Under the pieces are notes generated by a model that worked only from the letters and a program-made list of their open reading frames with translations, ran no database searches and had not been told where the DNA came from. A program made the position numbers and the translations under genes. Below, one piece after another: positions 9,448 to 11,437 of a stretch of 18,640 nucleotides of DNA; the first letter of the stretch is position 1, and every line of letters starts with the position of its first letter. The stretch covers positions 1 through 18,640 of the forward strand of contig JBEKYR010000065.1 in the NCBI GenBank assembly GCA_049510745.1, given 5' to 3'. This DNA comes from Verrucomicrobiota bacterium (lineage in GTDB: Bacteria; Verrucomicrobiota; Verrucomicrobiia; Limisphaerales; Palsa-1400).

Positions 9448-9534
9448 TGGTGCCGACGGAGGGGGTCGAACCCACACGGCCTTTCGGCCACTAGATTTTG
9501 AGTCTAGCGCGTCTGCCAATTCCGCCACATCGGC
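9448..9534 (-). tRNA. tRNA-Leu (anticodon CAA)
   Basis: Reverse complement GCCGATGTGGCGGAATTGGCAGACGCGCTAGACTCAAAATCTAGTGGCCGAAAGGCCGTGTGGGTTCGACCCCCTCCGTCGGCACCA: acceptor stem, anticodon stem CTAGA/TCTAG with CAA, long variable arm, TTCGA loop, encoded CCA. Confidence 0.97.
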
Positions 9535-9603: not shown

Positions 9604-9637
9604 AAAAAAGGCTTGGGAATTGTCCCAAGCCTTTTTT
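9604..9637 (-). terminator. Intrinsic terminator after the last pilin gene
   Basis: Perfect inverted repeat AAAAAAGGCTTGGGA-attg-TCCCAAGCCTTTTTT with A/T tracts on both sides, so potentially bidirectional. Confidence 0.88.
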
Positions 9638-9677: not shown

Positions 9678-10055
9678 TTACGGCAGAACGTGACTTGAGG
9701 AAACGATCTGGCAGACCGGCGGAGTGCCGACGGCGTTTGGCGTGTAGCTGGTGGTGAAGCTATTCTGCGAATCCACCGGGCAGGTGGGCAGTTCGCCATT
9801 GTTGCCGCGGCCCAGATAAGGCTGGAGGTCCGTGCCTTGCGGGGTGTCGGTGGACACCTTTTTCTGCTCCAAGGCCCATTGCTGCTTGGAGGAATCAATC
9901 AACCGGAGGTTGTTGATGCAAGCGTTTTGCTGTGAGGTGGTGCGGGCTTTCACGAAGTTGGGAATCGCAATCGCGGCCAACAGACCGATAATCGCGACAA
10001 CAATCATGATTTCAACGAGGGTGAAGCCCTGTTTTTTTGCAGTAGTTCTTTTCAT
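9678..10055 (-). CDS. Type IV prepilin (PilA-like), copy A
   Basis: Basic leader MKRTTAKKQG, cleavage/methylation motif G|FTLVE, hydrophobic helix IMIVVAIIGLLAAIAIPNF; 125 aa. Confidence 0.93.
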   Translation of the reverse strand: MKRTTAKKQGFTLVEIMIVVAIIGLLAAIAIPNFVKARTTSQQNACINNLRLIDSSKQQWALEQKKVSTDTPQGTDLQPYLGRGNNGELPTCPVDSQNSFTTSYTPNAVGTPPVCQIVSSSHVLP

Positions 10056-10073: not shown

Positions 10074-10145
10074 GCGGCGTGAACACAGCCAAAGAGCGGG
10101 TTAATATTAAAACTGAAGGTTCACAGATTGCTCTTTGACAACCGC
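10074..10145 (-). ncRNA. Candidate structured 5' leader of pilin A
   Basis: Pairings GCGGU/GCCGC, GUCAAAGAGC/GCUCUUUGGC and GUGAAC/GUUCAC; equivalent stems in the other two leaders. Confidence 0.5.
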
Positions 10146-10157
10146 TTTTAGTTTTCC

Positions 10158-10174
10158 AGCATTGCCTGTGCCAA
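10158..10174 (-). promoter_or_regulatory. Sigma-54 (-24/-12) promoter of pilin A
   Basis: Minus strand TTGGCACAGGCAATGCT, with exact GG-N10-GC spacing, about 100 nt upstream of the ATG. Confidence 0.8.
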
Positions 10175-10225
10175 GGAGCCGGAGCGGCCCCTGGCTTTGT
10201 CACGATCGCTTCCTTGCCAACCGTG

Positions 10226-10264
10226 AAAAAAGGAAAAAAGGGCCTGGATGGTTTCCAGGCCCTT
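10226..10264 (-). terminator. Intrinsic terminator after pilin B
   Basis: Minus strand AAGGGCCTGGA-aacca-TCCAGGCCCTT followed by TTTTCCTTTTTT. Confidence 0.85.
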
Positions 10265-10304
10265 CTTGATGCTCACGACCTCGCAGGATCGTGAAAGAGC
10301 GTCG

Positions 10305-10682
10305 TCAGGGCAGAACGTGGGAACTCGAAACGATCTTGCACTGCGGAGGCACGCCGACGGAGTTTTGACTGTAACTGGTGGCGAAGCTGTTTTGCGAATC
10401 CACCGGGCAGGTGGGCAATTCGCCCGCGGAGCCGCGGCCCAAATAAGGCTGGAGGTCCGTGCCTTGCGGGGTGTCGGTGGACTGCTTTTTCTGCTCCAAG
10501 GCCCATTGCTGCTTGGAGGAATCAATCAACCGGAGGTTGTTGATGCAAGCGTTTTGCTGTGAGGTGGTGCGGGCTTTCACGAAGTTGGGAATGGCGATCG
10601 CGGCCAGCAGACCGATAATCGCGACAACGATCATGATTTCCACGAGGGTGAAGCCCTGTTTCTTTGTAGTGGTCCTTTTCAT
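10305..10682 (-). CDS. Type IV prepilin (PilA-like), copy B
   Basis: MKRTTTKKQG|FTLVEIMIVVAIIGLLAAIAIPNF; 125 aa; 11 residues differ from copy A. Confidence 0.93.
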   Translation of the reverse strand: MKRTTTKKQGFTLVEIMIVVAIIGLLAAIAIPNFVKARTTSQQNACINNLRLIDSSKQQWALEQKKQSTDTPQGTDLQPYLGRGSAGELPTCPVDSQNSFATSYSQNSVGVPPQCKIVSSSHVLP

Positions 10683-10700
10683 ATTTCTCTTTCTATTGAC

Positions 10701-10772
10701 GCGGCGTGAACCCGGCCAAAGAGCGGGTTAATATCAAGACTGAAGGTTCACAGATTGCTCTTTGACAACCGC
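10701..10772 (-). ncRNA. Candidate structured 5' leader of pilin B
   Basis: Same stems as leader A, with GUGAACC/GGUUCAC. Confidence 0.5.
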
Positions 10773-10784
10773 TTTTAGTTTTCC

Positions 10785-10801
10785 AGCATTGCCTTTGCCA
10801 A
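10785..10801 (-). promoter_or_regulatory. Sigma-54 promoter of pilin B
   Basis: Minus strand TTGGCAAAGGCAATGCT, GG-N10-GC. Confidence 0.78.
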
Positions 10802-10853
10802 GGAACCGGCAGCGGCCCCTGGCTTTGTCACGGTTGCTTCCTTGCCAACCGTG

Positions 10854-10893
10854 AAAAAACAAAAGAAGGGCCTGGACTCTTTCCAAGCCCTTC
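10854..10893 (-). terminator. Intrinsic terminator after pilin C
   Basis: Minus strand GAAGGGCTTGGA-aagag-TCCAGGCCCTTC (one U-G pair) followed by TTTTGTTTTTT. Confidence 0.82.
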
Positions 10894-10932
10894 CTGATGC
10901 TCATGACCTCGCAGGATCATGAAAGAGCCTCG

Positions 10933-11310
10933 TCAGGGCAGGATGTGGGAACTCGAAACGATATTGCAGACCGGCTTGGTTCCGACGTTGTTTTGAGTGT
11001 AACTGGTGGCGAAGGTATTCTGCGAATCCACCGGGCAGGTGGGCAATTCGCCGGCGGAGCCGCGGCCCAGATAGGGCTGGAGGTCCGTGCCTTGCGGGGT
11101 GTCGGAGTTCTGTTTGCGCTGCTCCAAGGCCCATTGCTGCTTGGAGGAATCAATCAACCGGAGGTTGTTGATGCAGGCGTTTTGCTGTGAGGTGGTGCGG
11201 GCTTTCACGAAGTTGGGGATCGCGATCGCGGCCAGCAAACCGATAATGGCAACGACGATCATGATTTCAACGAGGGTGAACCCTGACTTGCGGGTGATTT
11301 TCTTCTGCAT
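10933..11310 (-). CDS. Type IV prepilin (PilA-like), copy C
   Basis: Start at ATG 11310 (MQKKITRKSG|FTLVE...), preceded by AAAAGG; this gives the same 125-aa length as A and B. Confidence 0.93.
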   Translation of the reverse strand: MQKKITRKSGFTLVEIMIVVAIIGLLAAIAIPNFVKARTTSQQNACINNLRLIDSSKQQWALEQRKQNSDTPQGTDLQPYLGRGSAGELPTCPVDSQNTFATSYTQNNVGTKPVCNIVSSSHILP

Positions 11311-11332
11311 AGTATTTACCTTTTCTGCTCTT

Positions 11333-11408
11333 TTGCGGCGTGAACAGGGCAAAAGGCGGGTTAATATGAATACAGTTTTGTTCACTAATTGCCTTTTGCT
11401 GACCGCAA
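11333..11408 (-). ncRNA. Candidate structured 5' leader of pilin C
   Basis: UUGCGGU/GCCGCAA, GCAAAAGGC/GCCUUUUGC and GUGAACA/UGUUCAC; sequence is diverged from A/B but pairing is retained. Confidence 0.5.
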
Positions 11409-11420
11409 CGCCTAAAACCT

Positions 11421-11437
11421 AGCACCGCTCATGCCAA
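11421..11437 (-). promoter_or_regulatory. Sigma-54 promoter of pilin C
   Basis: Minus strand TTGGCATGAGCGGTGCT, GG-N10-GC, at the equivalent position despite unrelated flanking sequence. Confidence 0.78.

Follow-up and report, generated by a model that had tools for sequence, protein, structure and literature searches.

Three tandem pilin genes and their leaders

The window, by which we mean the whole 18,640-nt stretch of DNA analyzed here, carries on its minus strand three tandem type IV pilin-like genes encoding 125 aa each: C (10933–11310), B (10305–10682) and A (9678–10055). Gene C gave an N_methyl match and a TIGR02532 match, the latter over the cut-off, with the next-best match, Myxococcus PilA, below it; the same domain and family searches identified genes B and A as type IV pilin-like. 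Using the usual sigma-54 consensus and motif-to-start offset, we read from the sequence a −24/−12 motif of this type ahead of each gene, again on the minus strand, at 11421–11437 (C), 10785–10801 (B) and 10158–10174 (A), with predicted starts near 11410, 10774 and 10147, respectively. As each gene is also followed by an intrinsic-terminator-like hairpin on that strand (10863–10895 after C, 10235–10267 after B, 9604–9637 after A), the three look like separate transcription units. A tRNA gene (9451–9534, minus strand, 53 bits), whose anticodon reads CAA (leucine), lies directly downstream of the array. A search of the host genome found rpoN, PilT-family and PilM genes; the PilT-family ATPase genes over the cut-off number seven, and the pilin query matched 63 times. 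Spread over several contigs, these predicted genes point to an unusually large type IV filament repertoire.

An earlier note on this DNA had proposed a cis-regulatory RNA motif in the 5′ leader of all three pilin genes. We found the three elements where it had placed them, on the minus strand: C at 11333–11408, B at 10701–10772 and A at 10074–10145, scoring 88, 70.1 and 74 bits, respectively, with the covariance model described below. Along the mRNA, each element consists of P1a, P2a, an AAU-NN segment (L1), P4a, an AU-rich loop (L2; 12–34 nt among homologues, ending in AACC), P2b, about 3 nt, P4b and P1b, so that P4 crosses P2 and abuts P1. In element C, these parts lie at 11406–11402 (P1a, with outer pairs from 11408–11407), 11399–11391 (P2a), 11390–11386 (L1), 11385–11380 (P4a), 11379–11358 (L2), 11357–11349 (P2b), 11345–11340 (P4b) and 11339–11335 (P1b). 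Element A is composed of P1a (10145–10141), P2a (10139–10130), P4a (10124–10119), P2b (10097–10088), P4b (10084–10079) and P1b (10078–10074), and element B has the architecture of C, but with a P2 of 10 bp.

Most of what the note had described within these elements is indeed there: the outer stem P1 is GCGGU/GCCGC in all copies, with two further U-A pairs in C; the second stem is GUCAAAGAGC/GCUCUUUGGC in A and B versus GCAAAAGGC/GCCUUUUGC in C; and the GUGAAC/GUUCAC complementarity is present in A, B and C. The last helix stops 18, 18 and 24 nt ahead of the ATG (A, B and C), in line with the suggested distance of about 20 nt, and the sigma-54-type motifs put P1 at +3, +3 and +5, close to the predicted start, as had also been suggested. 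A loop segment called invariant, AUAUUAACCC, does occur in all three copies, but in only 14 of 256 homologues, among which it is conserved only as AACC (229 of 256). An extra pair, said to lengthen P4, fared worse: it is canonical in 74 of 135 sequences, and its two bases do not change together along the tree (p 0.28).

Since elements A and B sit inside a duplicated unit that is 90% identical, and single-sequence folding is weak (z-scores of −1.71 for A, −0.72 for B and −3.07 for C), the window alone proves little, and homologues have to carry the case.

Distribution and gene link

We gathered homologues in several ways. A pilin search in 61 related genomes gave a first set, in which most close pilin homologues have the element upstream. 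A pattern scan of genome contigs then yielded at least 127 loci, from which 133 distinct elements were analyzed (a loose regular expression returned noise only). Among the matches listed, 126 of 133 precede a pilin motif, the remaining seven being accounted for by pilin starts cut by the contig or locus end or by a variant pilin. To avoid the bias of the pattern, 164 pilin genes of the same clade were collected by protein alone, and 138 of these have the element upstream (139 profile matches, one of them a spurious partial). Finally, a covariance model built from 70 element sequences detected the element in 75 of the 101 genomes of the order.

From 74 loci, comprising the 29 top-scoring ones and most of those at the weak end, 88 model matches were aligned; eight weak ones were dropped. 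Of the 80 retained, 76 precede a pilin, two precede a cut pilin start and two have no downstream DNA. No gene other than a pilin was seen downstream of the element, either among the 133 listed pattern matches or among these 80 strong model matches. The source labels listed for 80 of the pattern matches are mostly Verrucomicrobiota, several being Limisphaerales, Pedosphaera or subdivision 3, and a few bins are named otherwise. Outside the order, only scores of 22–24 bits were obtained, in five of 150 other genomes of the phylum and in one of 131 other-order genomes of the class. These matches, together with two of the same strength within the order, do not lie upstream of pilins and were discarded as chance, as was a 26.9-bit match in L305. 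By sequence comparison, the element is thus a conserved RNA structure confined to one pilin clade in one order of Verrucomicrobia.

The host genome contains five copies by the covariance model, each upstream of a pilin of the same clade. Two of these, at C8:174753–174830 (minus strand) and C48:22623–22701 (plus strand), lack a strict sigma-54 motif; the former has an ECF-like motif instead, and pilin paralogues may therefore answer to different sigma factors.

A number of loci depart from the rule. Two close pilin paralogues with a sigma-54 motif (L008 near 1199 and L009 near 1500) have no element; their leaders are short and A/U-rich, the start lying 40–41 nt beyond the −12 base, and these genes could serve as natural controls in expression studies. 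Same-clade pilins with sigma-54 motifs in G068 and G073 (L363 and L365) have different structured leaders, that of L363 consisting of two short hairpins. Four pilin relatives on viral contigs (L258–L261; 51–59% identity) have no element. In G111, a degenerate copy (L355:1293–1367, 19.6 bits) keeps P1, P2 and five of six P4 pairs with changed letters, and genomes scored as negative may contain degenerate copies of this kind.

Covariation supports three helices

The conserved features are the GUGAAC/GUUCAC arms of P4, the AAU (94–95%) and the AACC (86–93%), while P2 consists of 9–10 contiguous pairs. In the alignment of 70 sequences, 96% of cells are paired overall (96.8%, 93.0% and 99.8% for the three helices), compared with 34–51% for slid controls, and 17 of 20 pairs show two-sided change. 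RNAalifold recovers P1 and P2 unaided. Against a null simulated on the pilin tree (n=136), six of nine P2 pairs are significant (E<0.003), whereas the best P4 and P1 pairs are borderline (E of 0.06 and 0.067, respectively) because these pairs rarely vary. To resolve P4 and P1, we counted co-changes on the same branch of the tree (n=256). P4 pair 4 co-changes on 10 branches, in 10 of 12 changes (0.9 expected), and P4 pair 1 on three (0.1 expected); three P1 pairs do so 14, 7 and 3 times (2.9, 0.5 and 0.1 expected). Homologous leaders thus covary in all three helices, also when the tree is taken into account, and the note's claim of covariation holds.

The pairing also distinguishes the strands. 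Among strict-pattern matches, P4 pair 4 is A-U in 121, G-C in 10 and G-U in eight, and A-C in none; over all cells read on the mRNA strand, G-U outnumbers A-C by 236 to 64. This excess fits an RNA acting on the mRNA strand.

Three further interactions were considered and rejected. A base triple in which an L2 base would contact P2 pair 5 (E<0.003) has seven same-branch changes compared with 6.3 expected, and we read the signal as shared ancestry. Pairing of P1a with the AACC segment shows no co-change. Pairing of P2b with the Shine–Dalgarno region is possible in the window copies but unconserved (−5.51 kcal/mol for native, −5.25 for swapped and −5.89 for shuffled tails).

One fold or two

The note had argued that the short linkers make it unlikely for all three helices to form at once, leaving either a pseudoknot or a two-state switch. 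Linker lengths are tightly conserved, L1 being 5 nt in 112 of 136 sequences and P2b plus the joiner being 12 nt in 107 of 136; J1/2 and J2/4 are variable. We built a rigid-helix 3D model from standard A-form geometry; it ignores linker threading, and an H-type control passed. With natural linkers, J1/2 of at least 1 nt and L1 of at least 3 nt, the three helices were free of clashes in 20–29 of 30 starts; the model fails at an L1 of 2 nt and at a J1/2 of 0. Two zero-joiner cases were feasible in 0 of 30 starts, partly by construction. This failure implies that P1 and P2 cannot both extend fully. Maximal extensions of the two are common among the copies, and an end pair would be frayed in these. 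The coarse model thus allows coexistence, so the steric argument is not supported, and we read a single pseudoknot instead of two competing folds: P4 crosses P2, both covary, and the helices may well fold together, a result that the modeling allows rather than demonstrates.

In nested ViennaRNA folding, P1 with P2 is favored over P1 with P4 by a median of 4.1 kcal/mol; formation of P4 may therefore depend on Mg2+, on a protein or on a ligand. Each of these two nested folds is the minimum-energy structure of some single copies.

Position at the predicted 5′ end of the transcript

A strict sigma-54 motif lies ahead of 266 of 324 elements, and in 262 of these it is 10–19 nt before P1. Of the 58 elements that lack it, 19 match a relaxed sigma-54 motif; the 39 still unassigned include 10 with a sigma-70-like motif and 11 with an ECF-like one, each at a distance that matches (means of 0.42 and 0.04 in shuffles), these two patterns having been picked after viewing the sequences. 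As P1 lies beside motifs of three promoter types at a matching distance, promoters can apparently be exchanged without P1 losing its place at the predicted 5′ end. Transcription would start just ahead of P1. With starts predicted in this way, 135 of 204 leaders have at most 2 unpaired 5′ bases, 177 at most 4 and 27 at least 5.

RNA contigs from four studies match the leader, the RNA runs covering only small shares of the stretch. One contig, with five differences in 275 letters, runs from 11393 to 11119 and spans the junction of the leader with the coding region. This is consistent with a transcribed leader, the contigs showing neither start nor strand; there is no RNA contig cover upstream of 11404, which is uninformative because relatives diverge there.

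Comparison with known RNA systems

The note did not recognize the element as a known family, and neither did Rfam: the search of the window returned one tRNA and sub-threshold noise, and nothing was matched over the elements in 12 other loci. The RF01786 (c-di-GMP-II) model had no match in the window, in these 12 loci or in the host genome (it matched one of 14 in the control set). RF01051 (c-di-GMP-I/cGAMP) had none in the window or the 12 loci, and its genome-wide search matched no control genome either. Models of twister and other small ribozymes had no match in the window or the 12 loci. We found no description of the element in a literature search covering mainly open-access papers; the main texts of PMC11109978 and bioRxiv 10.64898/2026.10.21.760802 mention neither pilins nor Verrucomicrobia, the supplements of PMC2864571 contain no pilin term, and the available text of PMC3764141 has nothing on class II.

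The element resembles a riboswitch insofar as it gives the 5′ UTR a domain whose conservation and structure are like those of an aptamer. However, no expression platform of the terminator or anti-Shine–Dalgarno type was found in the leaders: a TTTT run occurs in just one of 255 tails, and no segment pairs with the Shine–Dalgarno region better than shuffled sequence (−5.5 kcal/mol for the P2b-to-tail duplex, −5.9 when shuffled). The Shine–Dalgarno-like motif lies at a median of 7 nt beyond P1, and the ribosome-binding site has a predicted unpaired fraction of 0.70. The leaders likewise showed no platform that would serve a two-state switch.

Among known systems, the class II c-di-GMP riboswitch Cdi-2-4 comes closest; according to the available text of PMC6366702 and PMC11477304, it precedes pilA1 of Clostridioides difficile and works via termination. 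In both cases a type IV pilin mRNA begins with a structured leader. Class II switches have a closing stem, an inner stem and a pseudoknot from loop to 3′ joiner within the closing stem, an order of helices also found here. Class II riboswitches have a kink-turn in the inner stem. The element, in contrast, has no RF01786 match, kink-turn or terminator, is limited to one gene clade, and occurs mostly in genomes where no GGDEF domain was found: GGDEF domains are encoded by 26 of the 101 genomes of the order and by 16 of the 75 carriers, and were not found in the other 59 carriers or in the host genome, which is 94% complete. With neither a terminator nor an anti-Shine–Dalgarno platform in evidence, we consider c-di-GMP unlikely as a ligand.

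Other likenesses are partial. The leaders bound by S15, by S4 (alpha operon) and by the phage T4 gene 32 protein contain pseudoknots; as in these, the element lies close to where the ribosome binds on mRNAs of just one gene family, but it has no Rfam match and no partner that we could find, and the product is a membrane-inserted pilin rather than an RNA-binding protein. In twister ribozymes, a pseudoknot helix is stacked on the closing stem next to an inner stem; the element shares this topology, but not the second pseudoknot, the conserved cleavage-site loop or the Rfam match. The E. coli ompA 5′ UTR is a 5′-terminal mRNA stabilizer, according to the available text of PMC7509114. Both have a helix at the 5′ end (here a predicted one), with an unpaired ribosome site downstream, on the mRNA of an abundant envelope protein; the element, however, is a three-helix pseudoknot with conserved sequence rather than a simple hairpin, and its stabilizing role is inferred.

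Interpretation

Taking the three helices, their strand, the gene link and the place beside promoter motifs as established, we tentatively favor, at somewhat less than an even chance, a constitutive 5′-end pseudoknot that works without a small-molecule switch, protects the pilin mRNA and keeps its ribosome site open. P1, P2 and P4 would form simultaneously in a compact structure, in which P1 joins the first transcribed bases to the end of the leader, P4 stacks upon P1, and P2 packs alongside both via the conserved unpaired AAU and AACC. The element would then act post-transcriptionally: the folded 5′ end would be hidden from 5′-end-dependent decay, and an A-rich, unpaired ribosome-binding region would be left just downstream, so that output of the bulk filament subunit is raised and buffered. 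RNase E senses a 5′ monophosphate (available text of PMC7509114). The host genome encodes an RNase E/G, and no RNase J match over the cut-off was found there. We rank this reading first because it accounts for the fixed position, the absent platform and the single-gene link. Against it, a plain 5′ hairpin would suffice for such a role, whereas the conserved GUGAAC/GUUCAC, AAU and AACC look like a binding surface; the 27 leaders with at least 5 predicted unpaired 5′ bases do not fit well, and the L008 and L009 pilins manage without the element. If the fold is constitutive, tertiary contacts are the only role it offers to the unpaired bases that are conserved, which leaves room for two kinds of partner.

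The pseudoknot could be the site of an RNA-binding protein that alters pilin translation or decay, which we regard as possible but doubtful. Such an operator requires neither a terminator nor an anti-Shine–Dalgarno segment, and it would be in keeping with both the restriction of the element to a single gene clade (126 of 133 listed pattern matches, 76 of 80 strong model matches) and the conservation of unpaired bases; no candidate protein was found, however, and neighbors are unconserved, no conserved partner gene emerging when 73 of 159 neighbor-cluster representatives were scanned. CsrA was rejected, being present in only 55 of 101 genomes, with GGA in the loops of only 24 of 256 elements, and Hfq was not found in the 94%-complete host genome. 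Rather unlikely, in our view, is a riboswitch that responds not to c-di-GMP but to c-di-AMP, some further nucleotide signal or an ion; its ligand would bind the P1/P4/P2 junction or an AAU/AACC pocket, lock P4, and thereby alter decay or translation. Its compactness, the constancy of its linkers and the conservation of its joining bases suit aptamers (available text of PMC5473149), P4 is the weaker helix, riboswitch control of a pilin has a precedent (available text of PMC6366702), and 93 of the 101 genomes encode a diadenylate cyclase domain. Five carriers, including two 94–96% complete genomes with three copies each, have no match to the cyclase, though, and the lack of a platform, the restriction to pilin genes, the absence of any Rfam riboswitch match and the divergence of distant copies, in which L2 is shortened to 12–14 nt and AACC is lost in 23 of 80, all weigh against a ligand. 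That the element is a new riboswitch class, whose signal has not yet been tied to pilus control and which acts via 5′-end access or mRNA decay, rather than a terminator or anti-Shine–Dalgarno helix, in an order where c-di-GMP synthases were mostly not found, seems more unlikely again. These readings are not exclusive of the favored constitutive pseudoknot, as a partner could tune the same fold.

The remaining explanations are far less probable. A switch with mutually exclusive P2 and P4 draws on the two nested folds, some 4 kcal/mol apart, but is improbable given that sterics allow all three helices together, the ribosome site is untouched in either nested state, linker lengths are conserved as for a single tertiary fold, and the alternative P1a–AACC pairing does not co-change. 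We give very little credence to two other readings, a DNA site for a repressor or activator within the first transcribed stretch and a ribozyme that cleaves itself: the element abuts the promoter, and its helix order is similar to that of twister, but the mRNA strand prefers G-U over A-C, arms co-change in nested and crossing patterns, the element is kept behind different promoter types, no ribozyme family is matched, and J1/2 and J2/4 are variable. Least credible of all is a divergent class II c-di-GMP or cGAMP riboswitch; its helix order and the pilA1 precedent in C. difficile (available text of PMC6366702) are offset by an unmatched RF01786 in the host genome, the scarcity of GGDEF domains, the missing terminator and an unbroken P2 without a kink-turn.

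Significance and further observations

We regard the element as a real pseudoknot RNA family of cis-regulatory leaders that has not been catalogued, with a putative function; it probably sets the longevity or translation of the pilin message. Well supported but absent from Rfam, this structured RNA is frequent within one verrucomicrobial order and goes with a single gene clade. It would give pilin genes driven by sigma-54 a further, post-transcriptional level of control in organisms where c-di-GMP, the usual pilus signal, appears mostly absent. At about 75 nt and with more than 250 natural variants, it is suited to probing and structure work. Should a ligand bind to it, a new signal would be indicated; as a 5′ stabilizer, it would be unusually elaborate and might be put to use as a portable part for expression.

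Two observations concern the pilin loci themselves. In G034 (L270 near 1600), the reading frame departs from the pilin sequence after about 24 residues and an integrase gene adjoins, which suggests an insertion in the pilin. In 10 of 58 loci the pilin has a sugar epimerase gene as its neighbor, and elsewhere the neighbor is an O-antigen-ligase-like, YfhO or TPR gene (neighbors of these kinds occur at L266, L289, L283, L268, L263, L274; L267; L300); such neighbors hint at glycosylation of the pilin.
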